A DNA stretch of 64,000 nt from an uncultured bacterium (GTDB lineage: Bacteria; Patescibacteriota; Minisyncoccia; Phycocordibacterales; UBA9973). A program made the position numbers and the translations under genes. Each line of letters starts with the position of its first letter. Position 1 is the first letter of the stretch. This document shows positions 218-61,493 of this stretch, one piece after another. The notes under the pieces were generated by a model. That model was not told where the DNA came from, made no database searches, and worked only from the letters and a program-made list of their open reading frames with translations. The stretch spans positions 1,844 through 65,843 of the forward strand of contig CAIMAO010000002.1 in assembly GCA_903838985.1 (NCBI GenBank), written 5' to 3'.

Positions 218-428
218 TTTTTATCAGAAATTTTTATCGCCTATTAAAAAAACCTTTATTTATATAGGTTTTTTAGGAAATAATTCTTGTGTATTTTATC
301 CTACCTGTTCAGAATATACAAAAGAAGCTGTGGAAAAACATGGTTTTTTAAAAGGTTTTTATTTAGGATTTTTACGAATTCTTCGTTGCCACCCATGGCA
401 AAAAAACCACATAGATCCAGTGAAATAA
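183..428 (+). CDS. yidD: Membrane protein insertion efficiency factor YidD
   Basis: 81 aa with the YidD hallmark ...FYPTCSEY... Sits between rnpA and yidC. The 5' end overlaps the rnpA end, so the true start may be internal. Confidence 0.8.
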
Positions 429-438
429 AAAAGAGAAT

Positions 439-523
439 AACTTTTTTGCCGGTACGGATTTTTTGAAGCTTAAAAAATCCTGAAATTCTCGCGCCGTCGC
501 GCTCGAAACCCCTTAAAAAGTTA
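439..523. repeat. ~85 bp intergenic repeat element, copy 1 (second copy at 1861..1944), nested in a locus-specific inverted repeat
   Basis: Near-identical to 1861..1944 apart from a one-T indel. Contains the hairpin ggattttttgaagcttaaaaaatcc and the GC-rich gcgccgtcgcgc segment. Flanked by the inverted pair agagaataacttttt / aaaaagttactctct. Confidence 0.85.
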
Positions 524-579
524 CTCTCTTTTTTATTTAGAAATTTTGATTTTTAAGCTTTTTCGTATAGAATGAAGAG

Positions 580-1329: not shown

Positions 1330-1848
1330 ATGGATAAAACAGAAATACAGAATTTAATAAAGGAATTAATTGAAAAAACCACAATTTCTGTGGGTAAGGT
1401 TTCTGTCGATGAAGATAAGCCAGCCACACTTAAATCAAATGGAGATAAAACCACTTGGTTTTCAGTAGAAGTAAGTCAACCTCATTATTTTTGGGAACGT
1501 GGAGGTGAAGCTCTTTTTGCCTTAAATCACCTTGTTCGTAGGATTATAGAAAACAAACTTCACCCGATTTCTTCTGCCTTAGAAACAGAAGGAAAAAAGG
1601 AAGGTTTAGGAATCTTAATTGATATTAATGGTTTTCAAAAGAAACGTATAGAAAATATACACGCAATAGCTCACATGATGGCTGAAAGATCTAGATATTT
1701 TAAATCAAATATAGAAGTTGATCCAATGCCAGCTTTTGAACGCAGAATTGTTCATGAATTTTTATCTGATGCCACTGACCTTAAAACTGAATCACAAGGC
1801 GAAGGTCTTTCTCGTAGGGTTGTTATTAAGTATATAGGAAGTATTTAA
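1330..1848 (+). CDS. jag: Jag/KhpB-like RNA-binding protein (Jag_N, KH, R3H)
   Basis: 172 aa. C-terminal R3H-like ...RRIVHEFL...SESQGEG... motif. Conserved position after yidC. Confidence 0.75.
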   Translation: MDKTEIQNLIKELIEKTTISVGKVSVDEDKPATLKSNGDKTTWFSVEVSQPHYFWERGGEALFALNHLVRRIIENKLHPISSALETEGKKEGLGILIDINGFQKKRIENIHAIAHMMAERSRYFKSNIEVDPMPAFERRIVHEFLSDATDLKTESQGEGLSRRVVIKYIGSI

Positions 1849-1860
1849 AGCTAAAGAAAC

Positions 1861-1944
1861 AACTTTTTGCCGGTACGGATTTTTTGAAGCTTAAAAAATC
1901 CTGAAATTCTCGCGCCGTCGCGCTCGAAACCCCTTAAAAAGTTA
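1861..1944. repeat. ~85 bp intergenic repeat element, copy 2, nested in a locus-specific inverted repeat
   Basis: Same core as 439..523. Flanked by agctaaagaaacaactttt / aaaagttatttctttagct. Confidence 0.85.
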
Positions 1945-1957
1945 TTTCTTTAGCTTT

Positions 1958-4700: not shown

Positions 4701-4705
4701 TTAAG

Positions 4706-7542: not shown

Positions 7543-7570
7543 AATTTTGCTTTATAAACTTTATAACTTT

Positions 7571-8212
7571 TTACTTTTCCAACTCTATCTTACCCTCCAA
7601 TTCTCCTGGATTGAAAACTTTATAAAATACTTCCACAACTTCTTCTGTTCCAAGCTGAACTGATTTTATTCCACAACGTGAAAGTCCTTGTTGTATGACT
7701 CCTACCCTCTGGTCTAATTGTGATCTTTTTTCCTCGAAATCTAACTGATTTTTTAATTCTTCTTCCTTTTTGTTTCTTTTTGAAAATAAACCGTCAAATA
7801 TACCTGCTTTTGGTTTTAAGTTCACGTGTGTGTAAGGCACAACAACAAAAAAGTTTTTTGTCATTATACTGACAGATTCGGTGAAATTTTTTATAAATTC
7901 TATATATTCTTTTGTTTGTAATTTAAGTAATGGTTCACTTTGCACCTTCATTCTGTTTTCTAATAATAAAAGATAATGTCTTATGTCGAGTCTTCTAGAT
8001 TGAACGGAAATTTGTACAGAAAAATCAAGGGTATTTAAGAAATTTTGGAATTGTAGTATTGTGGCTCTTTGTTCATCTTCTGATTTTAGAGATAGGTTGA
8101 CTGAATTGGCAAGAACAATAGCTCGAAGGTCTCCACCTTTCAAGACGACAATACCATCACGGACTTCCTTGATTGGTACAAACTCTTGAGTTGCTTTTGC
8201 GTTTAATGCCAT
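7571..8212 (-). CDS. T4SS-associated soluble protein, possibly a split N-terminal domain of VirB4
   Basis: 213 aa with no TM helix. Begins ...VPIKEVRDGIVVLKGGDLRAIVLANSVNLSLKSEDEQ..., which resembles the N-terminal region of Gram-positive VirB4/TraE proteins. Lies directly upstream of the ATPase gene. Confidence 0.45.
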   Translation of the reverse strand: MALNAKATQEFVPIKEVRDGIVVLKGGDLRAIVLANSVNLSLKSEDEQRATILQFQNFLNTLDFSVQISVQSRRLDIRHYLLLLENRMKVQSEPLLKLQTKEYIEFIKNFTESVSIMTKNFFVVVPYTHVNLKPKAGIFDGLFSKRNKKEEELKNQLDFEEKRSQLDQRVGVIQQGLSRCGIKSVQLGTEEVVEVFYKVFNPGELEGKIELEK

Positions 8213-8216
8213 AATT

Positions 8217-8651
8217 TTAATTATTTTCTTCTTTTTTCATATCAAGCACATCCAGACTCCAAGCCAAATCTCGAAGTTTGCTTCCACTAAGCCTTGAACC
8301 ATTTTGCAAGGTTTCCTGTTTTAACACTGCTGCTGCTTTCATTTCTTCTTGTTCTTGTTTGTTTACTTTATTTAGATGTCTTTTCCAAATATAGAGTCTG
8401 TCGTGTGATGCGAATTTTATTCCAGCCTCAATCATATTTATAAAAGGTTTTCCGTTTGGGTGATAAAAAGTAAGTGCTCCAGAAAGACCAGCAATTAATA
8501 AAATAGGAATAGCCCCTATCCATATTCCTAATAATTTAAACAATGTATAGCATAGTCCTGCCCCGCCAGCCAAATAAGCAAACTCCTTAAAAGTAAAAGG
8601 GCCGAAAATTTTATCCTCTATTTCCAAAAATTGTGGTACTTTGAATTGCAT
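8217..8651 (-). CDS. PrgI/VirB3-like small membrane protein
   Basis: 144 aa. The N-terminal ...FLEIEDKIFGPFTFKEFAYLAGGAGL... is followed by two TM helices, matching PrgI-family (VirB3 analog) architecture. Lies immediately upstream of the VirB4-like genes. Confidence 0.55.
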   Translation of the reverse strand: MQFKVPQFLEIEDKIFGPFTFKEFAYLAGGAGLCYTLFKLLGIWIGAIPILLIAGLSGALTFYHPNGKPFINMIEAGIKFASHDRLYIWKRHLNKVNKQEQEEMKAAAVLKQETLQNGSRLSGSKLRDLAWSLDVLDMKKEENN

Positions 8652-18445: not shown

Positions 18446-19318
18446 CTATTTTTTGTGAATATTTATGTTTTTAGAAATATTTATCCAATCTATAAGCGAA
18501 AGTTCCTCTGCTCTTTTGTTTCCTAATGTTTTTATAAGATTTTCATCTATGTAATTTGAGTTTTTAATTAGATTTTTTAGGTTTGAAGAGAGTTTTTTAC
18601 GTTTATGAGCAAAACCAGCACGGACCACTTCCCAAAAAAAGTCTTCATTTGCGTTGTTTTCTATGAAAGTTCTCCTAGAAATATTTTTTATTGCAATTAC
18701 TGCTGAATCTACAGCCGGTTCTGGTGAAAAATATCGTGATGGCACTTTTGTTATTAGTTTTGGTTCCCCATAGGCTTTTATTGAGATTGAAAGAATACTC
18801 TCCTTCCCATTACGTGCCACTATTCTTTTGGCTACTTCGTGTTGCACCATTAGAATCATCATTTCTGGCTGATTTTTTTCTGTTAAAAACTTTTTAAAAA
18901 TTGCACCAGTAATGTTGTATGGAATGTTTGCAATTATTTTATAATCAAAATCTGGATAGCCCTTTCTATTTTGAGCTTCCCGAGGGTCCCACCCGGTAAT
19001 CCGAGAAGGGCGCAGGGACGAAAAATTGGAAGAGATATCCAGATTTAAAATATCTTCTTCAAGCAAAATTAATTTTTTTTCAGTAATTTCTTTTGCAAAT
19101 TTTTCTTGAAGGAACTGAAATAAATTTTTATCTTTTTCAATCGCTATTATACAATTACTTTTTTCTAAAAGTTTTTCTGTTAATGCTCCCTTTCCTGGAC
19201 CAATTTCTAAAATAATATCGTCGGGTGATATTTCTCCGGCTTCAACAATTTTTTTAATCACTAAGTTTGATTTTAAAAAATTTTGGCCCAATGATTTTTT
19301 TGCTTTATGTATTTGCAT
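18446..19318 (-). CDS. rsmA: 16S rRNA (adenine1518-N6/adenine1519-N6)-dimethyltransferase RsmA/KsgA
   Basis: 290 aa. SAM-binding motif ILEIGPGKGALT, and IANIPYNIT matching the KsgA NxPY catalytic motif. The ORF stays intact across an inserted GC-rich element. Confidence 0.85.
   Translation of the reverse strand: MQIHKAKKSLGQNFLKSNLVIKKIVEAGEISPDDIILEIGPGKGALTEKLLEKSNCIIAIEKDKNLFQFLQEKFAKEITEKKLILLEEDILNLDISSNFSSLRPSRITGWDPREAQNRKGYPDFDYKIIANIPYNITGAIFKKFLTEKNQPEMMILMVQHEVAKRIVARNGKESILSISIKAYGEPKLITKVPSRYFSPEPAVDSAVIAIKNISRRTFIENNANEDFFWEVVRAGFAHKRKKLSSNLKNLIKNSNYIDENLIKTLGNKRAEELSLIDWINISKNINIHKK
18975..19025. repeat. GC-rich palindromic element (family 1) inserted in-frame within rsmA
   Basis: Core cccgagggtcccacccggtaatccgagaagggcgcagggacg is the reverse complement of the cores at 29448..29489 and 56287..56330. 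In the minus-strand reading frame it encodes ...SLRPSRITGWDPRE... Confidence 0.8.
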
Positions 19319-19322
19319 TTTT

Positions 19323-21455
19323 TTAAATATAAATTGTTTTTATTCCACCCTTCTCTCCTTCCTTTTCTATTATATCAACTGGTATGTCTCCAATGAAATC
19401 AGATAGTGCATTTATCTGTCGTGAGCCAAAGATGGTGCGGAAATTTGCAAAAGATAAAAATAATTTTTCTTTTGCGCGAGTGAGCGCAACGTAAAAAAGT
19501 CTTCGTTCTTCTTCTTTGTCTTCACCACTTTTTGCTTCATTTGATTTTTGATGAGGAAAGAGTCCATCTTCGAGTCCTGTGATAAAAACGTATTTAAATT
19601 CCAGACCTTTTGAAGCGTGAACTGTCATAAGCTTTACAGCATTTGTTTCATTTTTTTTATTTTCTGTAATCATTATTGAATCTTGGTCTGAAGCGAGTGA
19701 TGCATCTTCTAAAAGTTTTTCTATGCCCATTCCATTTTCCAAATTGTCATATTTTAAGGCCAAAGTTGCCAATTCCTTAATGTTTTCAAGCCTTTCTAGG
19801 TCTTCTTCCCCACCAGACAAAAGCTCTGTTTCTATGCCAGATTTTTTAACTGTAAATTTTATTACTTCAGACGCTTTTCCATTTTCTATTTTTTCTTTTA
19901 TTTCTTCTAACGTTTTATAAAAATTATCAACTTTGATTCTTACTTTTATTGGTAGACTTTCTTTTTCACCAGCAAAAATTTTTACAAGGGTCACTTTTCC
20001 TATTCCCCTTGTGGGGAAATTTATTATTCTTTTTATATCAGAAAGACTTTCAGGATTAAGTGCAGCACGAAGATACGCGAGTGTATCTTTTATTTCTTTT
20101 CTTTCAAAAAATTTTACACCAAGCACTTGATATGGGATGTTATATCTTAACATTGCTTCTTCTAACGCACGAGATTGAAAATTTGCTCGATACAAAATTG
20201 CTATGTCAGACAAAATATTTTTGGGTTCTTTTGCAAAACTAGTGATGCTTTTTCGAGCTGGTCTGGTTGAGCCCTTCGGACTTAATGAGGGCGACCCGAG
20301 GACCCGAGAAAAAGCATCGCTAGCTTTGCTATCTTGAAGCTCTAAAATTTTTATTGCGACGAAATCTGCTTCATCTCCCTCATCTAGCGCCTCATAGAAA
20401 CCGATTTTCTCCCCTACTCCATTTTTAGTAAACAAATTTTTATCTGGCCTATATTTGTTTTTCTTTATTATTTCATTTGCTGCCTCTAATATGTTTTGTG
20501 TTGATCTATAATTTTCTTCAAGTAAAACTATTTTTGCATTTGGGTAATCTTTTTCAAAACTTAAAATATTTTTTAAGTTTGCCCCACGCCAAGAATATAT
20601 ATTTTGATCCGCATCACCCACGACACAGATATTTTTATTTTTTTCAGAAAGCAAACGTGACATTAAATATTGTACTTCGTTCGTATCCTGATACTCATCA
20701 ATATGAATATATTGCCATTTATCTTGATACATTTCTCTTATTTCCTTGTTTTCCTTTAATAGTTTTGTTGCTTTTAAAAGTAAGTCGTCAAAATCTAATG
20801 AATTTTCTTTCATTTTTTTCTTTTCATAAATACTCCAAACTTGAGCCACTATTTTATTTAGATAGTTTCCACTACCACTTGGGCCATTGGCAATCTCTTC
20901 ATAATCTGCAAGATGTGTAAATTTACCTTTTTCTCGGCTGATTATATTTTTTATTTTTTTAGGATCATACTGTTTTGGGTCAACTCCTATTTCTTTTAAA
21001 GCTTCTTTTATAAGGGTTGTAGAGTCTGACTCATCTAAAATAGTGAAATGTCTAGTCAAACCCAATATTCTCGCATTTTCCTTTATAATATATACTCCCA
21101 ACGAGTGAAAAGTGCTAACAAACGGATGGCTGTTTACTTCGTTGGTAATGCTTTTTTGAATGGTCTGGCCGGGATAGGGACCCGGAGAACCGAGGACCTG
21201 AGAAAAAGCATTACCAACGAAGTTTACTTTTATTGCTTCCCTAATCCTCTCTTGCATTTCCTTTGCTGCTTTGTTTGTGAAAGTCACAGCTAAAATTTTC
21301 TCTGGAGCGACGCCATTTTTTATTAAATTTAGTATTCTATGTGTGATTGTTTTGGTCTTTCCTGCTCCAGCTCCTGCAACGATAAGAAGCGGCCCTTCCA
21401 TATGAATAGCCGCTTCTCTCTGTTTTTCATTTAGTCCTGACAGATGGTCTTCCAT
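19323..21455 (-). CDS. pcrA: ATP-dependent DNA helicase PcrA/UvrD (superfamily 1)
   Basis: 710 aa. Walker A AGAGAGKTKT. UvrD-family helicase motifs throughout. Carries two in-frame GC-rich element insertions. Confidence 0.9.
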   Translation of the reverse strand: MEDHLSGLNEKQREAAIHMEGPLLIVAGAGAGKTKTITHRILNLIKNGVAPEKILAVTFTNKAAKEMQERIREAIKVNFVGNAFSQVLGSPGPYPGQTIQKSITNEVNSHPFVSTFHSLGVYIIKENARILGLTRHFTILDESDSTTLIKEALKEIGVDPKQYDPKKIKNIISREKGKFTHLADYEEIANGPSGSGNYLNKIVAQVWSIYEKKKMKENSLDFDDLLLKATKLLKENKEIREMYQDKWQYIHIDEYQDTNEVQYLMSRLLSEKNKNICVVGDADQNIYSWRGANLKNILSFEKDYPNAKIVLLEENYRSTQNILEAANEIIKKNKYRPDKNLFTKNGVGEKIGFYEALDEGDEADFVAIKILELQDSKASDAFSRVLGSPSLSPKGSTRPARKSITSFAKEPKNILSDIAILYRANFQSRALEEAMLRYNIPYQVLGVKFFERKEIKDTLAYLRAALNPESLSDIKRIINFPTRGIGKVTLVKIFAGEKESLPIKVRIKVDNFYKTLEEIKEKIENGKASEVIKFTVKKSGIETELLSGGEEDLERLENIKELATLALKYDNLENGMGIEKLLEDASLASDQDSIMITENKKNETNAVKLMTVHASKGLEFKYVFITGLEDGLFPHQKSNEAKSGEDKEEERRLFYVALTRAKEKLFLSFANFRTIFGSRQINALSDFIGDIPVDIIEKEGEKGGIKTIYI
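20233..20329. repeat. GC-rich palindromic element (family 3), copy in pcrA, flanked by a 22-bp locus-specific inverted repeat
   Basis: Flanks gcaaaactagtgatgctttttc / gaaaaagcatcgctagctttgc. Core ggtctggttgagccc...gggcgacccgaggaccc. Encodes ...FSRVLGSPSLSPKGSTRPARKSITSF... in frame. Confidence 0.8.
21137..21222. repeat. GC-rich palindromic element (family 3), second copy in pcrA
   Basis: Flanks cttcgttggtaatgctttttt / gaaaaagcattaccaacgaag. Core gaatggtctggccgggatagggacccggagaaccgaggacctga. Encodes FVGNAF-SQVLGSPGPYPGQTIQ-KSITNE in frame. Confidence 0.8.
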
Positions 21456-27978: not shown

Positions 27979-28351
27979 GTTGTTTTTTATTATAAAACCT
28001 CTAGCTTTTAATTCCTAATTTTTAGGTGGAAATTAAGGAAAATACCTACATATTATATAATCTTTAAAGCATTTGTCAACTTAGTTTTCCACACTTAAGG
28101 TGGACTTGAGCCATGAAGTGAGCTACCCTTAATATAGTGCTGAACAGAAGTATGGAATAAACTGGCTGATTTACAGAAAAGATAGTAACCATCGTGAGAA
28201 CCTTATCCGCTATATTGCGGTACAGTACAATTTAGGTCGTCCTGTGTTTCACCCTTATTTTAAAAGGGTAAAAAAGGAAATCTCTCGATAATTAATTTGT
28301 TTTATAAAACCTCAATTTAAAATATTCAGTTCTATTCTGACGTTTTCCCTA

Positions 28352-29422
28352 TTGTCTGGGGCGTTTTTTGCGCCTCTGACCACCAACGCTAGTTTCTTGT
28401 CTTCTATCCTAGGGACGGATGCATCGGCAAGTAATGTCGACTCTCTAAACTCTACTCAATCTCTTAAAAACTCTCAAAACATGGCACTCCTGCAAGCAGA
28501 CGTTTCCCCTATTTCTGCCTCAGATGATAAAAGTAAAGATGGTGATGTTAGTGATGATTCCGACATTAATATTTTATCTGAAAACGCTCTTCTCCCTTCT
28601 ACTAGTCATAAGAGTGTTGGAGATGATACTGATGCTGGAGACTCCTATTCTGATCAAATAAGTGTTTATGTGATAAGAAAAGGCGACTCCATTACACAAA
28701 TAGCTGATATGTTTGGTGTTTCTACAAAAACAATTCTAGCAGCTAACAATATGAAAAAGGGTGACAAGCTTGTAGAGGGCAATGTGCTCTTTATTTTGCC
28801 TGTTTCTGGTCTAGAACATACCATAACCAAAGGACAAACCTTGAAAAGTATAGCTAAAATATACAAAATAGATGCCATAGATATAGCTCAATTTAACGGC
28901 ATTACTGAAGATACAAAGCTTGTTGTTGGAGATAAAATATTGATTCCAGGTGCTGATATGATAGATGAAGGTGGTGATAAACCAGCTTCAAACTTAAGTA
29001 GTGCTGCGGCTAAAGATAAAAACTATTACGATACACACAAAGTTAGAAGTCTCTCTGGTTACTTTATAAATCCAGTTCCTACTGGTCGCAAGACTCAAGG
29101 TTTGCATGGTCCAGGACATCGTGGTATAGATATCGGAGCACCGACAGGCACACCTATTTATGCTTCTGCTGGTGGAACGGTTATTCTTGCAAACACAGGC
29201 TGGAGTGGAGGTTATGGAAATATGGCTATAATCCAGCACGCAAATGGTACAAAGACACTCTATGGTCATATGTCTAAACTTGCTACATACACAGGAGATA
29301 CTGTTAAACAAGGTGAAGTAATAGGTTATGTGGGTTCTACAGGCCATTCCACCGGGCCACACTTACACTTTGAAGTATTCAATGCTAAAAACCCAGGCTC
29401 TGATTGGTCTTGGGCAAACTAA
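28352..29422 (+). CDS. LysM-domain M23 family metallopeptidase (peptidoglycan endopeptidase)
   Basis: Two LysM repeats (YVIRKGDSITQIADMFGVS..., HTITKGQTLKSIAKIYKID...). M23 motifs HRGIDIGAPTGTPIYA and GHSTGPHLHFEV. Confidence 0.85.
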   Translation: MSGAFFAPLTTNASFLSSILGTDASASNVDSLNSTQSLKNSQNMALLQADVSPISASDDKSKDGDVSDDSDINILSENALLPSTSHKSVGDDTDAGDSYSDQISVYVIRKGDSITQIADMFGVSTKTILAANNMKKGDKLVEGNVLFILPVSGLEHTITKGQTLKSIAKIYKIDAIDIAQFNGITEDTKLVVGDKILIPGADMIDEGGDKPASNLSSAAAKDKNYYDTHKVRSLSGYFINPVPTGRKTQGLHGPGHRGIDIGAPTGTPIYASAGGTVILANTGWSGGYGNMAIIQHANGTKTLYGHMSKLATYTGDTVKQGEVIGYVGSTGHSTGPHLHFEVFNAKNPGSDWSWAN

Positions 29423-29429
29423 AAAAACA

Positions 29430-29508
29430 AAAAGCACAAAATTTTTCGTCCTGCGCCCTTCCCGGATTACCGGGTGGGACCCTCGGACAGAAAAAATTTT
29501 GTGCTTTT
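29430..29508. repeat. GC-rich palindromic element (family 1) nested in an 18-bp inverted repeat; probable terminator hairpin after the M23 peptidase gene
   Basis: Flanks aaaagcacaaaatttttc / gaaaaaattttgtgctttt. Core gtcctgcgcccttcccggattaccgggtgggaccctcggaca. Confidence 0.8.
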
Positions 29509-29708
29509 TGTTTATAATTTTCTCCTAAAAACTAGAGCTTAGTTAAATAAAAGAGAGCACGACCTTGACTTATGTCTATCAAGGAAAGGAGAGAGATTTG
29601 TACTCTCTCCTATTTATACCAAGAATAACTCTTGATAATTTTTAAGCTCTAGTTTTTAAAAGAAAATAATTTCTCGCAATAGCCCAACAAAATTAATTTT
29701 GTTGGGCT

Positions 29709-29773
29709 AACAACGAGGTCAAACAGATTTTATTTGTTTGACCAGTATTTATGTTAACCCTAACCCGTTGTGC
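29709..29773. repeat. 65-bp structured direct repeat, copy 1 (3' of cassette 1)
   Basis: Identical to 31057..31121. Predicted fold: outer stem caacgagg/cccgttg enclosing hairpin tcaaacag-attttatt-tgtttga. Confidence 0.85.
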
Positions 29774-29990
29774 TTTCTCAGCGTGGAGGCTCTGCTTCCT
29801 CTTGGCTCACCATTTTAAAGAAAATGGTGACAAACTTTTTACCCGTCCTTTTATTCCTATGGATTTTTAGGAAACATTTTTCACCAGATGTGAAAAATGA
29901 ATGTACTGTTGCGGTGTTCCGCTTTTGTCTGGAGAGGTAAACAGTTTTACCTCGAGGTTTTACACCCAGACTGCACCCATCTCTCCTTAA

Positions 29991-30323
29991 TTACCCTAAG
30001 GTAACTAAGAGCCACTTGATAGTGGCACCTTCTGGTAAGGTCGAACAACCTTCCGGAAGGCGAGGCCCGACATACTGGCCTACAAGAGCTTTGTCATCTT
30101 TTTTAAGGACGACATTTACTCTGTTTGCCGGCACGTCTACTCCCAAGACATTACTGAACACATTAGCTGTGTCAGCATGTCCGACTGCTGACATAGCGTC
30201 AGTAGCGAGAGTCTTAGCCTGCTCTAAAGAGATTTCCTCAACATGAATATCTATCGGAAAGACAGAAATCATATTGAGGGAGATCGCGTTCAAAATAAAC
30301 ATGAACGTTTTCTCCTCTAGCAA
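29991..30323 (-). CDS. Hypothetical protein in GC-rich cassette 1 (110 aa)
   Basis: ORF with ~45% GC against a ~33% background. ...ISLEQAKTLATDAMSAVGHADTANVFSNVLGVDVPANRVNVVLKKDDKALVGQYVGPRLPEG... It may resemble the DUF1874/STIV-B116-like family, but this is unverified. Confidence 0.5.
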   Translation of the reverse strand: MLEEKTFMFILNAISLNMISVFPIDIHVEEISLEQAKTLATDAMSAVGHADTANVFSNVLGVDVPANRVNVVLKKDDKALVGQYVGPRLPEGCSTLPEGATIKWLLVTLG

Positions 30324-30484
30324 CTACTATCTCCTCAACTTCCTCGCAGTCACACTACGATTTATATGAGTATTTAAGTTACTAGCTCTGTTGATTTTAA
30401 AGGTTGATCAACTAACCGCTTCCAACTCACTTGAGTCAGAAGTATATCCCGCAGAAACCACTGCGTTGCTAGGGTTTTTAATTT

Positions 30485-30856
30485 TTAGTCTGTGTAACGA
30501 TTAATTCTGATCATTACATCATCTGGCATATCAGCCAGTTTAATTTCCGCGCGGAATCCCCTTGGGTCGCTATAAAAGGAAGATAAAATAATTTTTTCCC
30601 CTAAAGAATATAAAATTAAATATTCTTTATTTTCCAACACCTGAGATTCTACTTTTCCTCCTTCTCCCGTATAAAAAAAAGAGAAATCTTTGCAATACTT
30701 TATTTGTATTGTAAACATAGTATCTAATTCCCACATTTTTTTTTCATGGAATTCTTTCCATGAAATATCCAAAGGGAGGTTTTTAAAACCAAGACCAAAT
30801 CTTTTCAGATTTGTCTCGAAATCGAAAGCATCCATTAATTTTTGGAATATACTCAT
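30485..30856 (-). CDS. Hypothetical protein in cassette 1 (123 aa)
   Basis: ORF preceded (on the minus strand) by a strong SD ggtgaggagg and by the shared leader repeat. Confidence 0.45.
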   Translation of the reverse strand: MSIFQKLMDAFDFETNLKRFGLGFKNLPLDISWKEFHEKKMWELDTMFTIQIKYCKDFSFFYTGEGGKVESQVLENKEYLILYSLGEKIILSSFYSDPRGFRAEIKLADMPDDVMIRINRYTD

Positions 30857-30900
30857 TTTTTCCTCCTCACCATTTTACGTCCGTGAGGTAGACATTTGTT

Positions 30901-31010
30901 TTTTATGATTAGTCAGTTGTTTAAAAGTAGTTAAATAACCACACTTAAACAACTAACCAACCACAAGTAAAAAATGAAATTTACTCTCTTCTATTTAATT
31001 TTCAAAAAAC
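30901..31010 (-). promoter_or_regulatory. Shared ~110-bp 5' leader/promoter repeat, copy 1 (upstream of 30485..30856)
   Basis: About 85% identical to 34631..34746 (ttttatgat...gtttaaaagtagttaRaataaccacRcttaaacaactaaccaac...aatgaaRttt..ctct.ttc.atttaattttcaaaaaac). Both copies sit 27–44 bp upstream of a minus-strand start codon with a GGAGG-type SD. Confidence 0.6.
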
Positions 31011-31056
31011 TCGCAATGAATTTTCCATTTAATTAACCCAATCAAATGAAAAACTC

Positions 31057-31121
31057 AACAACGAGGTCAAACAGATTTTATTTGTTTGACCAGTATTTAT
31101 GTTAACCCTAACCCGTTGTGC
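31057..31121. repeat. 65-bp structured direct repeat, copy 2 (3' of cassette 2)
   Basis: Identical to 29709..29773. Confidence 0.85.
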
Positions 31122-31467
31122 CTTACGGCAGATGAGGACACAAAATTTTTATTGTAATTTTATGTTTATCCTCACGCCAAATAAATTTGACTTCCTCTTT
31201 GTTTTATCGGTAGGCATCCGACTAGTTATAAGGTCACAATCCACTTATGTAAACTCTCGGTCTACTTCTGCTAAAAGCCTAACACTCACACCTTGTCACC
31301 AACCGTATGGTATTGTGAGATGGTACATTTGTGTATTTTATGTCTATAATGTTTTCCTTACGGACGAAAAAGAATTATAGACCACGTGCACAACCAGAGA
31401 CCTCCTTATTTTTTTGATAATAATTCAATTATGGGTCTGGTAGCCCAAAAATTGTCGTTAATTAATT

Positions 31468-32841
31468 TTAGAGTTTGTTTACACCAACTCCGCCCGTACT
31501 GATCGCAAGATCAGTCAGAACTTTATTTGTACACTCAACTACAAAGGCATGCATTTTTGTACCTGTAAAATCCTTCATAGTTAAGTTTATTTTATCGTCC
31601 CCATCAGTAATAATAACGAGCTCGGGACGATAGGTGGAACCTGCTTTTATTATTTCTTCGATCCTTTGTTGCGCCAGCTTCGCGCATCCCGAGATATCTG
31701 TACTTCCACCTGAATAGTTTTTCTCGGTAAAGTGCTTGATTAACTCCTTAGCTTCAGTTGGGGTAGAGGAGTGATGTTCCTCCTTCAATGTAGTATCGAA
31801 GAGCCTTACATAAAGCTCAGCCTCTCCCTCAATCACCGCTTTTAAACGATTTATGAGGATTCCACCAGCCTTAAATATTCTCTGGCCAGATCCCATTGAT
31901 CCGGAGCAGTCTATAATAATATAAAGGAGCTGCTTCTTTTCAATGGTCGTCACTCTCTCTCTTACCATACTAGAATGAGTGACAATTCTGTATGTCCGAT
32001 AAGTGCTCGGTAGCGCCCATTCGGATTTTATCAACTTATTCATTTCGCCCGTGTGCGCTATTGGGCGGTTCCGGACACTATCACCGGCCGGATCCGGTTC
32101 TTGTTTTTTACTCTTACGCACTTGCATGCGCGTAAGTTTATCTAGATTTCTTGAAATCTGGAGCATAATCTCCTTACCTTTCAAAAAATCTTCCGCAAGT
32201 TTCATTTTTTGGAGACCGTCATCTCCTTTTCCTTCACTCGCTCCCGAACCAGTGTCCTGGTCAGGATCAAGCAGTTGTTTTTCATCTTTGGATAAAGAAT
32301 CAACTTCATCCATAAGATTATTCAGCTGCTCGCCGACTTTTTCTGACTGATCATTGTCGGTAAATATTGGTAACGGCTCTCCGGCCTCTCCACCACCTTG
32401 TCCACCTTGCTTTTTTGACAAAAGTTTCAGTAGACTCATGGCTTGTTCAAGTGGAGAACTACCAGGGAAACAATTAAGATCAATTGTCTGCAAAAAATCG
32501 CAAACGTTTTGATGATACCTCATCTGTTCCCGAGTTCTACCTTCGATTGCTTCAAACCGACTCTTGGTTGATACTTCAGTCTTTGATTTTTTATCGCGAC
32601 GGAGGTATTTCCAATTACCGGAAGTGTCGGCAGCAGGTAAAGTTTCCTCAACATTTTTCCTTACAACTTGTTGATAGGATGATGGAGGATTTACCTGACC
32701 GCCAGCAGCCAAATTACATAAGTCCGCGACTAAGTCCCTTGAAAAGGATTTAACGCCAACCTTATCTCCAACTTCCCGCATTTCTTCCGCACTAGGCGAA
32801 AGATAAGTTACGGGAGGAGAAGTTCGAAATGTAAATTGCAT
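31468..32841 (-). CDS. VWA-domain protein, CoxE-like (von Willebrand factor A with MIDAS motif)
   Basis: 457 aa. C-terminal VWA with ...LLYIIIDCSGSMGSGQ... (DxSxS MIDAS) and ...VIITDGDD.... The N-terminal ~250 aa is charged/low complexity, as in CoxE-family partners of MoxR ATPases. GC-rich. Confidence 0.75.
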   Translation of the reverse strand: MQFTFRTSPPVTYLSPSAEEMREVGDKVGVKSFSRDLVADLCNLAAGGQVNPPSSYQQVVRKNVEETLPAADTSGNWKYLRRDKKSKTEVSTKSRFEAIEGRTREQMRYHQNVCDFLQTIDLNCFPGSSPLEQAMSLLKLLSKKQGGQGGGEAGEPLPIFTDNDQSEKVGEQLNNLMDEVDSLSKDEKQLLDPDQDTGSGASEGKGDDGLQKMKLAEDFLKGKEIMLQISRNLDKLTRMQVRKSKKQEPDPAGDSVRNRPIAHTGEMNKLIKSEWALPSTYRTYRIVTHSSMVRERVTTIEKKQLLYIIIDCSGSMGSGQRIFKAGGILINRLKAVIEGEAELYVRLFDTTLKEEHHSSTPTEAKELIKHFTEKNYSGGSTDISGCAKLAQQRIEEIIKAGSTYRPELVIITDGDDKINLTMKDFTGTKMHAFVVECTNKVLTDLAISTGGVGVNKL

Positions 32842-32864
32842 GTGTTTTCTCCTTCTCGCGATTT

Positions 32865-33938
32865 TTATATGCGGGTATTTTCAAGTGCCAGTTTTTGAGT
32901 CTCGGAGGTTTTCTCCGAAACTGTGTCTCTTAATTTTTTACGACGGTCAGACAAACCGTCGGTTACTTTTAGTGATGAAATTTCATCATTAAGAGCTACT
33001 AATTTTTTTGCCACTTGTAATAATTTGATTGGAGATGTTGCGTTTACTCTTGACTCATTTAATAACTCGCCGAATTTTGTCTCGGCAAGAGAAAGATTTT
33101 TTTCAGCAGCAGCTCTCTCCATCGCAGTCTCAAGGTCTTTGCTGATTGTTTCTGCAAGACCTTCAAGTCCAGGCAGAAACCGTAAATCAGTAAGGTCCTG
33201 TTTCTCTACTTTTTCACCACCACGCAGTGTAGCGGCAGTTTGACAGATCTGAAAGGAATGGACTGCTGTACGAGGGCTCACAAAATTGCCCTCAGCAGTT
33301 GCTTTTGCTAAAATCTCTGCGAGAACGGCCTTAAAGCCGTTAAGAATCGGACCGTTTAACCGACCGGCGACTTTTTCAAACATCTTCAAATAAGAGGACG
33401 CTGAATAATCTTTCCATTTCAAGTTTAATTGAAGCGGAAAGCGCTCAATAAGAGCATGTGCCGCTGGGCCTAAACCAGAAATTTCCTGAGGTTCTTTATT
33501 TGTTAAGCAAATTATTAGCTCGGTTCTCATTTTAAATCTCTGCGAACCGTTTCTTAATTCCTTAGCAGTCAAAACGTCTTTTAGAGCTAGAAGCACCGAC
33601 GCCGGAGCATCAAATAATTCTTCGAATACTGCTATCCGAGAATTTAAAAAAGATTTCTCTGGATAGTATTCAAGAATTTTATCTTCCTCTAATTTTTTGA
33701 AGTTCAATCCTCCGAAGAGACGGCTTTCATCCATCCCTTCACCAAAAAATTGGTAGAAGGTATCAGAATCGAGATTCAAACCATCAATAACTGCCTTTGT
33801 CATCTCAGATTTGGCGTGTCCGCCCGGTCCGAAGATGATAATGTTTTTTTTACTTGTGAAAGCAAGTGCAAAAATACGCACTACCTCGTCGACAAACACA
33901 AACGAGGTTTCAAGAATATTTTTAATTTTCTCTAACAT
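32865..33938 (-). CDS. MoxR-like AAA+ ATPase (CoxD-like)
   Basis: 357 aa. Walker A IIIFGPGGHAKSE. Divergent Walker B and sensor region ...IAVFEELFDAPASVLLALKDVLTAKE.... ...ELIICLTNKEPQE...ALIERF..., aligning with the MoxR ...LATQNP...LDRF... region. Adjacent to the VWA gene. Confidence 0.75.
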   Translation of the reverse strand: MLEKIKNILETSFVFVDEVVRIFALAFTSKKNIIIFGPGGHAKSEMTKAVIDGLNLDSDTFYQFFGEGMDESRLFGGLNFKKLEEDKILEYYPEKSFLNSRIAVFEELFDAPASVLLALKDVLTAKELRNGSQRFKMRTELIICLTNKEPQEISGLGPAAHALIERFPLQLNLKWKDYSASSYLKMFEKVAGRLNGPILNGFKAVLAEILAKATAEGNFVSPRTAVHSFQICQTAATLRGGEKVEKQDLTDLRFLPGLEGLAETISKDLETAMERAAAEKNLSLAETKFGELLNESRVNATSPIKLLQVAKKLVALNDEISSLKVTDGLSDRRKKLRDTVSEKTSETQKLALENTRI

Positions 33939-34135
33939 TTTTACTCCTGCCCATTTAACGCCGGGACCAGCAATTGATTTGAGTTTGAGCGCTTTATTTC
34001 CGCTTCATTAAGGGCGGCAATAAACCTGGCACTCCTCGCTGTCTTGTTGGTAGCGAATAACCCAGGAGTCATGTGTGCTTACTCACACATGTCCTGAAAA
34101 TGATTTTCATTTTTGTGTTGAGTAAGCAACATTTT

Positions 34136-34603: not shown

Positions 34604-34630
34604 TTTTCTCCTTTCTCCACTTCTGTGGAG

Positions 34631-40154: not shown

Positions 40155-40565
40155 TTACAAAATAAGATCTTCCACAACTTTTATTTTTGCTTTCTTGTTT
40201 TTTATATCTAAAAACACAACCAATAAATCGACTTGCCATTCTTTATCCTCAGGGACGTTTTTATTTAAAAGATAGGTTTGTATTGTCCGTGACATTCTTT
40301 TCATTTTCCAAGGATGCATATTATCTTCAGGTTTGTAATTATCTAGGGTTTCATGTGTAACGTTAGCTAAAGTTTCACGAGAAACACTCTTAACTTCAAT
40401 AAAATATAGCTTATTTCCCTTTTCAGCTACAATATCTAGTTCTCCCCATTTTCTAGTGTAATTTCGTTCTATAATAACGAAATTGTGTTTCACGAGAAAC
40501 TTTATGGCTATATTTTCCCCAATTTCCCCTATTTTTTGTGTTTCTGAGGTAAAAACCTTAGGCAT
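40155..40565 (-). CDS. yraN: YraN-family (UPF0102) predicted endonuclease
   Basis: 136 aa. ...GEIGENIAIKFL...IIERNYTRKWGELDIVA...YFIEVKS... matches the YraN pattern. Confidence 0.7.
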   Translation of the reverse strand: MPKVFTSETQKIGEIGENIAIKFLVKHNFVIIERNYTRKWGELDIVAEKGNKLYFIEVKSVSRETLANVTHETLDNYKPEDNMHPWKMKRMSRTIQTYLLNKNVPEDKEWQVDLLVVFLDIKNKKAKIKVVEDLIL

Positions 40566-41022: not shown

Positions 41023-41093
41023 GCGGTTATGGTTTAGTGGTAGAACACGTCCTTGCCAAGGATGAGACGGGAGTTCGATTCTCCCTAGCCGCA
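41023..41093 (+). tRNA. tRNA-Gly (anticodon GCC)
   Basis: gcggttatggtttagtggtagaacacgtccttgccaaggatgagacgggagttcgattctccctagccgca. Anticodon loop ttgccaa. Confidence 0.85.
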
Positions 41094-41100
41094 CAGAATA

Positions 41101-42698
41101 TAGTGAATCTAATAGAAGAGAAAAACTTAATAAACAAGATTCCAAAAGAAGTTTCATTTGTAACGGACACGCTTGAAAAGGGTGGTTTTGAGGCATACCT
41201 TGTAGGTGGTTGCGTGCGTGATTTACTAATGGACAGGGAACCAAAAGATTGGGACATAACAACTAATGCGAAACCAGATCAGATTATCGGACTTTTTGAA
41301 AAAACTGTTTATGAGAATGATTTTGGCACTGTAATGGTTATTCAAGAAGATGTTTCACGAGAAACATTACGTCAAATAGAGGTTACGCCATATAGAGTTG
41401 AAGCAAAATATACTGATTTTAGACATCCTGATGAAATAAAGTTCAGTGATAATATAGAAGATGATCTTAAGAGACGTGATTTTACCATAAACGCCTTGGC
41501 TCTAAATTCTAAAGGACATATGATAGACATGTTTGATGGCTTAAAGGACATTAAAGACAAGATGTTAAAAGCAGTAGGGGAACCAGATGATCGTTTTCAA
41601 GAGGATGCACTTAGAATGTTGCGCGCTGTGCGTATTGCTTTACAACTTGGTTTTTCTGTGTCTTATGAAAGTAGTGAAAGTATTTTAAAAAATTCTGATT
41701 TGATAAAAAAAATATCACCAGAAAGAATTCGTGACGAATTTTCAAAAATAATAATGTCTGCGAATCCATCTGTCGGAATTGTAATGTTGCAAAAATTTGG
41801 TTTATTAAAAAATATAATTCCTGAGCTTGAAGAGGGAATTGATTGTGAACAATCGGGTGAACATATTTATGATGTTTGGAATCATTTACTACATGCACTG
41901 CAACATGCTGCTGACAAAGATTGGTCATTTGAAGTAAGAATAGCAGCGTTATTTCATGATATTGGAAAACCTAGATCTAGGAGGGCTGCAGAAAAAACTT
42001 CGCCTGATACTTTTTCTCAGGTCCTCGGGTCGCCCGCACAAAATTCTAAAAAAGAGCGGGCTCAACCAGACCATTCGCAAAAGTATACAGGCGAAGTTTT
42101 TTTGAAAAAGAAATACACATTCTATGGGCATGAAGTGATAGGAGAGAGAATGACAAAAAAAATATTGGAGCGTTTAAAATTTTCCAAAAAAGAAACAGAA
42201 TTAATTTTAAAACTTATTCGCAATCATATGTTTTTCTCTGACACAGAACTTATAACTCTTTCTGCCGTGCGAAGAATCATTGCGAAAGTTGGAGCAGAAA
42301 ATATTTGGTTGTTAATGAATGTTCGTGAGTGTGACAGAGTAGGTATGAAGAAGAAAGAAGCACCATATCGTTTGCGTAAATATTTTGCAATGATAGAAGA
42401 AGCCTTGCACGACCCCATATCTGTCGGACAGCTTAAGATTGATGGAGAATTTATGATAAAAAATCTTGGTATAAAGCCAGGCCCTAGAATGGGATGGATT
42501 TTGCACGCATTGCTTGAAGAAGTTCTCGATGATTCAAGTAAAAATACAGAAGAGCATCTTTCAGAATTAGTGAAATCACTCAATATGCTCGGAGATGAAG
42601 AGTTGAGAACATTGGGTGAAAGAGGGAAAGAAAAAAAGGAAGAATTAGAAGAGCAAGAAGTAGAAAAATTACATTCTAAACATGGAGTTAGGAAATAA
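41101..42698 (+). CDS. cca: CCA-adding tRNA nucleotidyltransferase (polyA polymerase family with HD domain)
   Basis: NTase motif LVGGCVRDLLM...DWDI, HD domain ...LFHDIGK.... The ORF as listed (41037) would overlap the tRNA-Gly, so the real start is probably the GTG near 41101 or further downstream. Contains an in-frame GC-rich element. Confidence 0.8.
41994..42112. repeat. GC-rich palindromic element (family 3) inserted in-frame in cca, flanked by a ~20-bp locus-specific inverted repeat
   Basis: Flanks acttcgcctgatactttttctc / gcaaaagtatacaggcgaagttttt. Core aggtcctcgggtcgcccgc...gggctcaaccagacc is the reverse complement of the pcrA copies. Encodes ...FSQVLGSPAQNSKKERAQPDHSQ... Confidence 0.8.
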
Positions 42699-48662: not shown

Positions 48663-48679
48663 AATGTTTATATTAACAT

Positions 48680-48790
48680 AAACTTGTGAAACTAATGTTT
48701 TTTCACCACGAAAATCTTTTGCTAAAGATTTTCTCTGTCCGTCGCCGTCGCTCCTACCAAGGGTTCAAAAACATTAGTTTCACAAGTTTA
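48680..48790. repeat. Perfect 23-bp inverted repeats (aaacttgtgaaactaatgttttt / aaaaacattagtttcacaagttt) enclosing a 65-bp segment, between xerC stop and xth start
   Basis: The enclosed segment carries an AT hairpin (gaaaatcttttgctaaagattttc) plus gtccgtcgccgtcgctcc, the same architecture as the yidD/jag repeat. It overlaps the xerC stop codon and is likely a terminator or MITE-like element. Confidence 0.75.
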
Positions 48791-49705
48791 TTTGCGGCTA
48801 TGAAATTTCTTATGCACTTCCAGTAATTGTTTGTCAGTAATGTGTGTATAAATTTGAGTTGTAGAGATATTTGAATGTCCGAGCATCATTTGCACACTCC
48901 TTATGTCTGCACCGTTTTGCAGTAAATCAGTTGCGAAGGAATGACGGATGATATGTGGTGTCACTTTTTTTGATATGCCTGCTTTTATCGCGTAATATTT
49001 TACAATACGTTCAAGTGAACGGGGTGTTAATCGTGTGGCTTTGCTTTTTGATATTTTTGAAAGTTGAATGAACATCGCTTCTTCCATATCTTTCCTTTTT
49101 GCTAAATATTCCTTAATTGCTTTTTTTGCGGTATCAGATAAAAAAACTACACGCACTTTTTCTCCTTTTCCTCTGATAGAAAATTCGCCTTTTGATAAAT
49201 CTAAATCTTTATTTAATGAAGAAAGTTCTGATACACGAAGTCCTGTAGAAAAAAATAATTCAAGGATTGCTTTGTCTCGAAGATTTTTTAAATCAGTTCC
49301 ATTTGGGCCGGAGAGAAGCCTACCCAATTCTTCTCCTGTAATTAAATCTAAACTCCTTTCTTTTATTTTTGCTAATTCTATTCTATCAGGGGAGAGGGCA
49401 GAGATTTCACGTTTGATTAAATATTTTAAAAAAACACGAAGTGCAATCAAATAATAATTTTGAGTATTTTTTTTCATCGTTGCACTTATTTGTCCTCGTA
49501 CTTTTGTGCCGGATTGTCTGTTTAAAAAAAGTCTGAATTCTCGCACTTTTTCATCTGTGATATCTTTTATTTTTTCTGTTTTACTAAATTTAAAAAAGCG
49601 AGTTAAATACCTTTCATAATTTTCTACAGTTTTTAAACTTGAACCTTTTTCAATTTCTAGATATTCCAGAAATTCTCTTTTGTATTTTTCTATCTCAGAC
49701 GCCAT
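48788..49705 (-). CDS. xerC: Tyrosine site-specific recombinase XerC/XerD
   Basis: 305 aa. C-terminal ...RHSFATDLLQNGADIRSVQMMLGHSNISTTQIYTHI... with the catalytic R..H..R..Y signature. Confidence 0.85.
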   Translation of the reverse strand: MASEIEKYKREFLEYLEIEKGSSLKTVENYERYLTRFFKFSKTEKIKDITDEKVREFRLFLNRQSGTKVRGQISATMKKNTQNYYLIALRVFLKYLIKREISALSPDRIELAKIKERSLDLITGEELGRLLSGPNGTDLKNLRDKAILELFFSTGLRVSELSSLNKDLDLSKGEFSIRGKGEKVRVVFLSDTAKKAIKEYLAKRKDMEEAMFIQLSKISKSKATRLTPRSLERIVKYYAIKAGISKKVTPHIIRHSFATDLLQNGADIRSVQMMLGHSNISTTQIYTHITDKQLLEVHKKFHSRK

Positions 49706-50628: not shown

Positions 50629-50717
50629 AATTTTATTAGTTAATCGGTTCGCGTTCGGACAAAAAGTAGTGTTCTATAAATATAGGAACAATACTGTAGT
50701 CTGGACACGAACTCAAA

Positions 50718-50795
50718 GTTTTCTTGTAAAAAATTTTTGAAACTGCGCCCTCGGAGTCATAAAGACAGGGGACCCACACGTTTCTTAAATTTTTT
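50718..50795. repeat. GC-rich palindromic element (family 2) within a locus-specific hairpin, between NYN gene and pnp
   Basis: Core ctgcgccctcggagtcataaagacaggggacccaca, similar to 54318..54358. Flanks aaaaatttttgaaa / tttcttaaatttttt. Confidence 0.75.
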
Positions 50796-50810
50796 ACAGG
50801 AAAACTAAGT

Positions 50811-54271: not shown

Positions 54272-54298
54272 TTTTGTTTAATTTTTATTATGTAAAAT

Positions 54299-54378
54299 CA
54301 CAAAACTTAAAATTTTTGCGCCTTCGCCCTCGGAGTCAGAAGGACAGGGGACCCACGACGCTAAAAATCTTAAGTTTT
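54299..54378. repeat. GC-rich palindromic element (family 2) within a 17-bp inverted repeat, downstream of dksA
   Basis: Flanks caaaacttaaaattttt / aaaaatcttaagttttg. Core gcgccttcgccctcggagtcagaaggacaggggacccacgacgc. Confidence 0.75.
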
Positions 54379-54400
54379 GTGATTTAAAATTACCATAATT

Positions 54401-56269: not shown

Positions 56270-56350
56270 ATTTCTTTAAATTTTTTGTCCCTGCGTCCTT
56301 CTCGGAATACCGAGTGGGACCCTCGGGAAGCAAAAAATTCAAAGAAATTA
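56270..56350. repeat. GC-rich palindromic element (family 1) upstream of lexA
   Basis: Core gtccctgcgtccttctcggaataccgagtgggaccctcggga. Flanks ctttaaattttttg / caaaaaattcaaag. Confidence 0.8.
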
Positions 56351-61178: not shown

Positions 61179-61310
61179 ATAGCTATATTATATTTATCAT
61201 CGCTTTTTGTCAAAAATCATAAAAAAATAATGCTTTTTCACGGCTCGCACTCTAACCTGAATTTGGTTAACTAATTTAAAGTAGTGTATGCCGAAAAAAG
61301 CATTATTTTT

Positions 61311-61493
61311 TTATTTTATTGTAGATTCTACAGCACTAGAATTTTGATTATCTTGAGCCTTTTTTATATCTTTTATTTTTCCATAGAAAAGATATATTCC
61401 ACCAATAATTAGAATTATAATAATAACTATTGAACCAAAAAGTGCGCCGTTTGACTTTTTATCTGCTTCCATAGTTTTTATTCCTACTCGCAA
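61311..61493 (-). CDS. Small membrane protein (60 aa)
   Basis: ORF with a single TM helix (SIVIIIILIIGGIYLFY). Confidence 0.35.
   Translation of the reverse strand: MRVGIKTMEADKKSNGALFGSIVIIIILIIGGIYLFYGKIKDIKKAQDNQNSSAVESTIK

Follow-up and report, generated by a model that had tools for sequence, protein, structure and literature searches.

The stretch of DNA analysed here (the window) comprises 64,000 nucleotides (nt) from an uncultured bacterium of the Patescibacteria (GenBank assembly GCA_903838985.1, contig CAIMAO010000002.1, positions 1,844 to 65,843). Its minus strand carries, at 19323..21455, an open reading frame (ORF) for a helicase of the PcrA/UvrD type, which at 710 amino acids (aa) is intact and runs without interruption through two GC-rich hairpins. 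A first-pass annotation, made from the sequence alone, took these hairpins for two palindromic elements inserted in frame into pcrA. They are indeed copies of a dispersed palindromic element, but not isolated ones: they form part of a dense population of several families, and the two helicase loops in which they lie are recurrent hotspots.

The two hairpins of pcrA

Both hairpins are of what we call type D and lie on the minus strand. The one at site 1 (21136..21223, 88 nt), with helicase motif Ia on one side and motif Ib on the other, has arms at 21136-21156 and 21203-21223 around a core at 21157-21202, and encodes ...NFVGNAFSQVLGSPGPYPGQTIQKSITNEV... The one at site 2 (20233..20329, 97 nt), ahead of the ...IAILYR strand, has arms at 20233-20254 and 20308-20329 around a core at 20255-20307, and encodes ...SKASDAFSRVLGSPSLSPKGSTRPARKSITSFA... 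The segments had been described as about 60% GC, a figure that fits the cores (63% of 46 nt at site 1, 62% of 53 nt at site 2, against a window mean of 33.6%) but not the full segments of about 90 base pairs (bp), which have 49% and 53%, respectively. Similarly, the perfect inverted repeats differing between copies are found as such only at site 1, where 21 of 21 arm positions are complementary; the 22-nt arms at site 2 pair at 20 positions (91%) and are thus imperfect. Moreover, both copies, and a third at 41992-42102, share the inner ~10 nt of their arms (RATGCTTTTT / AAAAAGCAT), so that the locus-specific part of the pcrA arms is only the outer 10-12 nt or so.

In the mRNA sense both cores read ...GGTCCTCGG-(inner hairpin)-CCAGACCA..., in agreement with the shared core first reported, and the layout of type D can be written as RATGCTTTTT-CTCR-GGTCCTCGG-(variable inner hairpin)-CCAGACCA-...-AAAAAGCAT. 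The two copies agree in orientation and in reading frame and encode AFSRVLGSP... and AFSQVLGSP..., which contain the SRVLGSP and SQVLGSP originally noted; the insert peptides expected from the pcrA frame include SQVLGSPGPYPGQTIQK and VLGSPSLSPK. Folded as mRNA, they reach -44.2 kcal/mol (z = -10.9) at site 1 and -43.7 kcal/mol (z = -5.7) at site 2, and none of 200 dinucleotide shuffles was as stable for either hairpin.

When the whole window was searched against Rfam at gathering thresholds only four tRNAs were returned, a permissive Rfam search of 18.8-21.4 kb placed nothing on the elements, and ARAGORN reported nothing beyond tRNAs; ribozyme, intron and tRNA-like readings were accordingly rejected. 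The ends of type D (AGGTCCTCGGTTC...CCAGACCA) do resemble a T-arm and acceptor-CCA, though loosely, and neither program supports the likeness. Elsewhere in pcrA, RF03531 (“C. difficile sRNA included into helicase gene”) matches below threshold at 19444-19541 on the minus strand (47 bits; gathering score 65.2). The match covers conserved sequence coding for the C-terminal part of the helicase, and coding conservation is its most likely source.

In-frame insertions at recurrent sites

We compared the gene codon by codon at the DNA level with ortholog-bearing loci of relatives (L001-L004, L201-L209 and others; L202 is from Hainich groundwater). A scan of reference genomes with PcrA gave about a dozen close relatives, the rest being distant, and close orthologs were then retrieved by exact-protein look-up; the nearest are from Patescibacteria (Paceibacterota/Nomurabacteria), with 72-83% identity and lengths of 644 to 752 aa. 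Site 1 is filled by orthologous copies in the window and in L001, L002, L202 and L204-L209, and is empty in L201, L203, L003 and L004, where identical anchor codons are separated by 81 rather than 156 nt. Site 2 is empty in L201 (66 versus 177 nt between anchor codons), and at the same site L203 has a near-identical core with unrelated arms. The hairpin at site 1 has been inherited through a clade and is old rather than the product of a recent event.

A HMMER alignment to the Geobacillus PcrA structure (1PJR) breaks exactly at both inserts, with residues 79-86 and 344-351 being replaced. In an AlphaFold model that is weak overall (mean predicted local distance difference test score, pLDDT, 63; predicted template modelling score, pTM, 0.38), residues 80-107 and 378-412 are the longest unstructured stretches, with pLDDT below 50. 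Both segments are lineage-specific in-frame insertions that replace short connecting stretches of the helicase. They are absent from PcrA proteins outside the clade and from many orthologs within it, the opposite of what the first-pass annotation named as a refutation. One further ortholog (P0061, 1045 aa) is longer by about 330 aa and carries the intein-type Pfam domain PF14890, so in some lineages the same helicase hosts an intein too.

Of 120 PcrA orthologs (72-83% identity), 49 have an empty site 1 and 31 have type D there; one of four other recognised types is present in 16 (7 + 6 + 2 + 1), and other sequences in the remaining 24. Only 5 of 116 orthologs lack an occupant at site 2, which otherwise has at least eight core types, with type D present in two forward frames and in reverse, and tandem combinations occur. 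Two other genes have loops of this kind. The window's rsmA/ksgA (18446..19318) contains an in-frame type-B hairpin at 18948..19046 (minus strand), and the loop in question precedes YKIIANIPY; L001 and L202 have it empty, and five different cores fill it in the window, L203, L003, L004 and L204. The third type-D copy of the window (41992..42102, plus strand) lies in frame in the HD-domain loop of the gene for the CCA-adding enzyme (41037..42698); L208 and L202 also have type D in this loop, with frames and arms that differ, and L204 and L209 have none. In rsmA two more variable spots, after NISRRxF and near the C-terminus, carry GC-type peptides in several relatives (orthologs of L201, L003, L004, L204 and L001), which makes at least three colonised loops in that gene.

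Across pcrA, rsmA and the CCA-adding enzyme, independent insertions number more than 20, and every one keeps the frame and is free of stops; more than 100 orthologs are likewise intact. Since this constraint would be pointless if the segments were spliced out or bypassed, the inserts are most probably translated as extra loop peptides. The opposite possibility is that they are removed before or during protein synthesis, as an intron-like RNA, by bypassing of the byp type or as an intein-like peptide, which would leave a PcrA protein without the segments. Pairing of the long stem would place the two flanks side by side, and ribosomes are known to bypass GC-rich insertions in Magnusiomyces mitochondrial genes (PMC8811140). 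However, the byp elements, as that paper relates them, break the frame and are skipped by the ribosome, whereas the elements here are always in frame; the hairpins, at 88 and 97 nt, are not multiples of three, no Rfam intron or ribozyme matches them, and 25-37 aa is far too short for an intein. Removal in any of these forms is, in our opinion, extremely improbable.

Host codons in the arms

In five copies host codons make up one arm and their inverted copy, which empty alleles lack, the other. At pcrA site 2 of L001 the host sequence is the 3′ arm (S-N-L-T-D-I) and the copy is the 5′ arm, and at the same site of L003 one arm contains the host codons I-L-S and the other the copy. The remaining three are in the other genes: the rsmA element of the window has the conserved ILNLD in its 5′ arm (mRNA sense) and a copied 3′ arm reading YPDF, the CCA-enzyme element of the window has E-K-T-S-P-D (AEKTSPD) in the 5′ arm and Y-T-G-E-V-F in the copied 3′ arm, and that of L208 has I-A-E in the 5′ arm with the copy again 3′. 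The inverted duplication of flanking coding sequence, which the first-pass annotation read from the two pcrA hairpins, can thus be seen directly in these five, although not in that pair itself, where either arm may be the copy. The stem at site 2 of the window begins inside the host codons D-S. A fixed polarity of the copied arm, such as a strand-specific insertion intermediate would leave, can be rejected, given that the copy is 3′ of the core in both CCA-enzyme elements and 5′ of it at site 2 of L001. Arms are GC-rich in hosts with about 56% GC, which indicates that they follow the local sequence. Within a family the inner ~10 nt are common (RATGCTTTTT for type D, AACTTTTT for type A) and the outer 8-19 nt are specific to the locus, the conserved unit being some 65-75 nt long.

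Arms of this kind could also have been in place beforehand, if cores insert into the apical loops of existing hairpins such as terminators, chance inverted repeats or earlier elements, with the hotspots being sites of resident hairpins. About half of the intergenic copies have outer arms of the form A-tract/stem/T-tract, much like bidirectional terminators; site 2 of pcrA has tandem and nested occupants; and the retention of arms around a differing core at site 1 of L001 suggests that cores can be swapped within conserved arms. The empty site 2 of L201 (CAG GAC AGT GGC CTG TCC GAG) contains a 6-bp inverted repeat, GGACAG..CTGTCC, and the arms of L206, L205 and L003 start exactly there; the repeat may be a short hairpin of the host to which insertions are drawn or, equally, the footprint left by deletion of an earlier element. 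On the other hand, the inverted repeats in empty coding alleles (L201, L004, L204 and L209, and rsmA of L001 and L202) are at most 5-6 bp long, not 15-29 bp, and five copies have one arm that is not host sequence and is absent from the empty alleles. Insertion into ready-made hairpins seems to us unlikely as the whole source of the stems, although it may contribute.

Paired changes in stems and conservation of cores

The nine orthologous hairpins at site 1 allow the evolution of a stem to be followed. Across them 91% of stem cells are paired, and both members of 8 of the 21 basal pairs have changed, often in blocks of neighbouring pairs (GTT/AAC, GCC/GGC, GTC/GAC and ACT/AGT). The covariation score is reached by none of 500 shuffles, and registers slid out of place are paired at 30-51%. 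Because the stem is coding, the changes are seen in the protein as mirrored pairs of residues, V with N, A with G, A with S and V with D. The cores behave differently from the surrounding gene: identity at four-fold sites is 88% (253/287) compared to 37% (1321/3569) in the rest of pcrA, which means that the nucleotide sequence is conserved and not the peptide; one core may be read in either of two forward frames or reversed.

Strong covariation and the high identity of silent core sites would both be expected of RNA or DNA structures retained by selection, whether for mRNA processing or stability, as translational pause sites between helicase domains, as terminators or as protein-binding sites, and the immediate proximity of intergenic copies to gene ends and the repeated acquisition of the same loops point the same way. 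Selection on pairing in the mRNA specifically finds no support in the mismatches on that strand, where G-U shows no excess over A-C (4 versus 7, both small numbers). Nor does any Rfam family match, and the coding copies have no T-tract after the stem. More generally, the presence in one loop of unrelated families, in both orientations and different frames, with some orthologs empty, fits tolerance better than a specific function, and we consider it quite improbable that selected structures explain the elements.

Elements in the window and in relatives

At least 13 hairpins in the window, the pcrA pair included, share one design, in which a long AT-rich stem clamps a GC-rich structured core; core GC is 62-69% (33.6% for the genome) and about six core families can be distinguished. 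Four are in genes (two in pcrA, one each in rsmA and the CCA-adding enzyme) and eight or nine are intergenic, often abutting start or stop codons. Among the latter, type A is found at 423..538, with a core reading GCCGGTACGGATTTTTTGAAGC...CGCGCTCGAAACCCCTT, and at 1847..1957, where it exactly fills the gap between two convergent stop codons; the arms of the first are unlike those of the second beyond AACTTTTT. Type B, the family of the rsmA hairpin, recurs at 56270..56348 and at 29425..29513, the latter 2 nt past the stop codon of an M23 peptidase gene and with arms matching at 22 of 22 positions and an outer A-tract/T-tract. An orthologous empty site was sought for this copy past the peptidase gene, where the locus is rearranged in the relatives and the comparison uninformative. 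Type C is found at 50717..50806 (core ...GCGCCCTCGGAGTCA..GACAGGGGACCCAC...) and at 54295..54385. Type E (48678..48791) has another GC-rich core with 25-nt arms and overlaps the stop codon of a gene for a Xer-like recombinase, and type F (61219..61314) has the inner stem of the pcrA copies (AATGCTTTTT/AAAAAGCATT) with a different and less GC-rich core.

Two other repeats in the window are of a different nature. Directly past the intergenic type-B element at the peptidase gene is a hairpin (29514-29670) with arms of 25-28 nt and a 101-nt AT-rich loop containing internal stems. The 20-nt inverted repeat TAAAGTTTCACGAGAAACAC, at 40368-40387 and 40485-40504 within a UPF0102/YraN-like gene (40155..40565) and kept in L001 (714-850), is AT-rich and without a GC core, and is thus distinct from the GC-core elements.

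A stringent census gave 32 GC-core hairpins, in about 11 core clusters, in 290 kb of Paceibacteria loci (1.1 per 10 kb), compared to a single one in 323 kb of equally AT-rich loci from outside the Candidate Phyla Radiation (CPR), or 0.03 per 10 kb. Scanning metagenomes for the type-D core with the flanks left unconstrained identified 19 true copies, each with its own locus-specific arms of 14-29 nt, whereas the arm scores of 108 chance matches in GC-rich DNA were at most 9, with a median of 3. With loci found later included there are 26 type-D copies in all, with a median arm of 22 nt. We think it highly probable that these are dispersed selfish elements which are translated where they occupy loops.

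Movement of the cores

The search proposed in the first-pass annotation, for further copies of the core and for a RAYT/IS200-like transposase, succeeded in its first part, as the dispersed copies above attest, and not in its second within the window: a Pfam scan of the ~50 window ORFs gave no Y1/HUH (Y1_Tnp), RAYT/IS200-like or DDE transposase and no reverse transcriptase. The Xer-like recombinase encoded at 48788..49705 was considered as a mobiliser and set aside, as it looks housekeeping and has no specific link to the elements. A phage origin was rejected as well, given that none of 14 matches in viral contigs is a true element, all having arm scores of 6 or less. The only AT-rich viral match to the type-D core pattern (L214, 8756-8788) is the 3′ half of a tRNA, comprising T-arm, acceptor strand and CCA.

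Repetitive extragenic palindromes (REPs) are palindromes of 20-40 bp with a GTAG/CGTC tag, and a REPIN consists of two conserved REPs around a variable loop, associated with a gene for a REP-associated tyrosine transposase (RAYT, of the Y1 type); MITEs (miniature transposable elements with inverted repeats) have conserved terminal repeats and direct target duplications. The elements described here resemble both in being short, dispersed, hairpin-forming palindromes that are mostly intergenic. A classical non-autonomous transposon of one or the other kind, mobilised by an enzyme encoded elsewhere (for REPs and REPINs of the RAYT/IS200 type) and with the arms as terminal inverted repeats, would agree with the common inner ~10 nt of the arms (RATGCTTTTT, AACTTTTT) and with the scatter of copies over many genomes. 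It agrees poorly with outer arms that are locus-specific and partly made of host codons, with imprecise copy boundaries and with the missing Y1/HUH, DDE or reverse-transcriptase gene in the window. Unlike in MITEs, direct repeats at the borders of the hairpin are confined to four of the 26 type-D copies, where they measure 2-3 nt, the remaining 22 having none as long as 2 nt, and the layout is the opposite of a REPIN, with the core (loop) conserved and the outer arms variable. We regard a transposon of this sort as very unlikely.

Three comparisons bear on how cores move. The site-2 copy of L209 consists of the L209 site-1 core together with 13 nt of the 3′ stem of the site-1 copy; a difference of 2 nt separates the site-2 cores of the window and L203, which lie between unrelated arms; and site 1 of L001 keeps the arms of its clade with a core that differs by indels and resembles other copies. 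As the copy boundaries in these cases are imprecise, we infer that a copy-based transfer, by copy-choice or gene conversion, fits the movement of cores better than cut-and-paste.

Other features of the window

An AT-rich imperfect palindrome is present in two direct copies, at 30893-30976 and 34643-34699, with ~90% identity over ~50 nt. Between them lies a block of ~3.7 kb with 40-45% GC that contains MoxR-like AAA and VWA genes and may be an integrated element; the wider GC-elevated stretch (28200-35600) also has a TrmB-like regulator and a STIV B116-like ORF. On the minus strand, 3351-8651 is occupied by a type IV secretion-like cluster (a pilin/NlpC-P60 protein, a TraG-like ATPase and a PrgI-like protein), which is also found near the genes of the pcrA region in L203, L207 and L208. 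The four tRNA genes, for Gly-TCC, Pro-TGG, Arg-TCG and Gly-GCC, lie between 39874 and 41094. As the listed GTG start of the CCA-adding enzyme at 41037 overlaps tRNA-Gly(GCC), the true start is probably further downstream.

Discussion

In our interpretation, the pcrA copies represent one of many families of small GC-rich, hairpin-forming selfish elements that populate the genomes of Paceibacteria (Patescibacteria/CPR), with insertions both in the spacers between genes and within coding sequence. Inside a gene the survivors would be copies in tolerant loops that keep the frame and are free of stops, and these would be translated as extra loop peptides. Once resident, the stable hairpin of a core would promote intrastrand template switching (snap-back priming) during DNA synthesis, in which the nascent strand would fold at the hairpin and copy the opposite side, so making the long perfect basal stem and repairing it repeatedly. 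With growth of the stem into adjoining host sequence, one arm would come to be host DNA and the other its inverted copy. The cores themselves would spread by an imprecise copy-based process and not by a cut-and-paste transposase. The anatomy of the elements, their status as insertions, recurrence, in-frame state, host-derived arms, paired stem changes and nucleotide-level conservation are direct observations; the part played by template switching, its timing and the route by which cores move are proposals.

GC-rich hairpins this stable, set in AT-rich DNA, are ideally suited to trigger template switching, which in E. coli is suppressed by functions of the ExoI, ExoVII, SbcCD and RecQ type. The process has been described at existing hairpins, where the nascent strand folds, primes itself and copies the opposite stem, so that a single event yields a perfect stem and what look like compensatory changes of several bases (PMC8794818); it also homogenises and expands the arms of inverted repeats (PMC13100816). 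Acting on the elements, at insertion or later, it would lead to locus-specific arms, host DNA on one side, a lack of polarity, a lack of direct duplications and continued covariation. Two of its recognised marks are found here, namely an arm that is the reverse complement of adjacent sequence (five copies) and multi-base compensatory changes (8 of 21 pairs). We lean slightly towards template switching as the process that builds and maintains the stems, and find moderately probable the combined picture of translated selfish elements, similar to Rickettsia palindromic elements (RPEs) or to GC clusters, with stems derived from hairpin-primed template switching.

Several points weigh against this interpretation. 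The role of template switching is a matter of inference, and selection for pairing would also yield covariation in the stem. That the cores are so strongly conserved as nucleotides may indicate a function or a need for recognition that a purely selfish model does not predict. A mobilising enzyme may be encoded elsewhere in the genome, beyond the 64-kb window. Translation of the inserts is deduced from conservation of the frame, the structural model of PcrA is weak throughout, and host and copied arms are indistinguishable in the window's own pcrA pair. Finally, the loci of the census were picked around pcrA, which biases upward the fraction of elements in coding sequence (25/32).

In the literature on palindromic elements, MITEs, RPE-like elements and GC-rich hairpins, our coverage of which was incomplete, we found no description of such elements in Patescibacteria or the CPR, which is an absence of evidence only. 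The likeness to RPEs suggested in the first-pass annotation holds as an analogy, in that both are dispersed palindromes in frame in unrelated ORFs, and not as membership. RPEs (Ogata et al. 2000, 2002; summary in PMC10969869) comprise several families, reported as ~150 bp with a conserved encoded peptide, and have no known transposase. In the terms of that summary, the elements here are similar in forming several small palindromic families in a reduced AT-rich genome, in frame in unrelated housekeeping genes at positions compatible with the fold, and with no known transposase; they differ in the phylum of the host and in a conserved unit of ~65-75 nt, short of the ~100-150 bp expected of an RPE, that is conserved as nucleotides rather than as peptide. 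A locus-specific stem derived from host codons, covariation within a host ORF, and one loop holding many families in both orientations are likewise not among the features that it lists. Since the host is a Patescibacterium and not a Rickettsia, membership is unlikely on taxonomy alone, and the comparison is one of description.

The GC clusters of yeast mitochondria offer a second parallel, being GC-rich palindromes in an AT-rich genome that are mostly intergenic and also occur in frame, as in var1 (PMC8811140). They form many families that merge and shuffle, are involved in gene conversion, and have a mode of movement that is unresolved (PMC8811140). They differ in belonging to an organelle and not to a bacterial chromosome, and in having direct terminal repeats (AG/TAG) that are read as target-site duplications (PMC8811140), whereas here the flank is duplicated in inverted form and most type-D copies are without direct repeats. 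Hairpin and double-hairpin elements in fungal and sponge mitochondria (PMC2800124) are similar in their recurrent invasions, diverse hairpins and occasional insertion into rRNA or protein genes, and those of Allomyces lack flanking direct duplications (PMC2800124), although all of these are again organellar. Template-switch (quasipalindrome) mutagenesis itself (PMC8794818; PMC13100816; PMC7202029) shares reverse-complement copies, perfect stems, multi-base compensatory changes, homogenisation and expansion of arms, and effects on coding sequence. So far as these accounts extend, however, they concern a general process at ordinary inverted repeats and RNA genes, and not a companion of mobile elements that rewrites housekeeping codons.

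Taken furthest, our interpretation would make these elements a transposase-free class of mobile DNA, whose cores would spread by polymerase copy-choice and whose stems would “zip” into host DNA by snap-back synthesis, the loops of PcrA, RsmA and the CCA-adding enzyme becoming mirror-image pairs of codons that co-vary to keep the DNA hairpin. Resident hairpins would then serve as landing pads, and the same loops would be refilled by different families across Paceibacteria. We put this forward tentatively, as something possible rather than probable.

The elements affect gene calling in the CPR, protein-family alignments and structure prediction, and many of the insertions regarded as CPR-specific may be such elements. 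They provide a natural system that joins selfish DNA, template switching in replication and the evolution of proteins, with protein loops whose residues co-vary owing to pairing in the DNA and which have been colonised independently again and again. Compensatory evolution of the stems gives a countable signal by which template switching might be separated from selection. If the copy-choice model were true, it would amount to a mode of mobility that needs no enzyme encoded by the element, and it might link RPEs and mitochondrial GC clusters mechanistically. The Patescibacteria are noted for their minimal genomes, yet those studied here carry about one element per 5-10 kb, including inside core enzymes.

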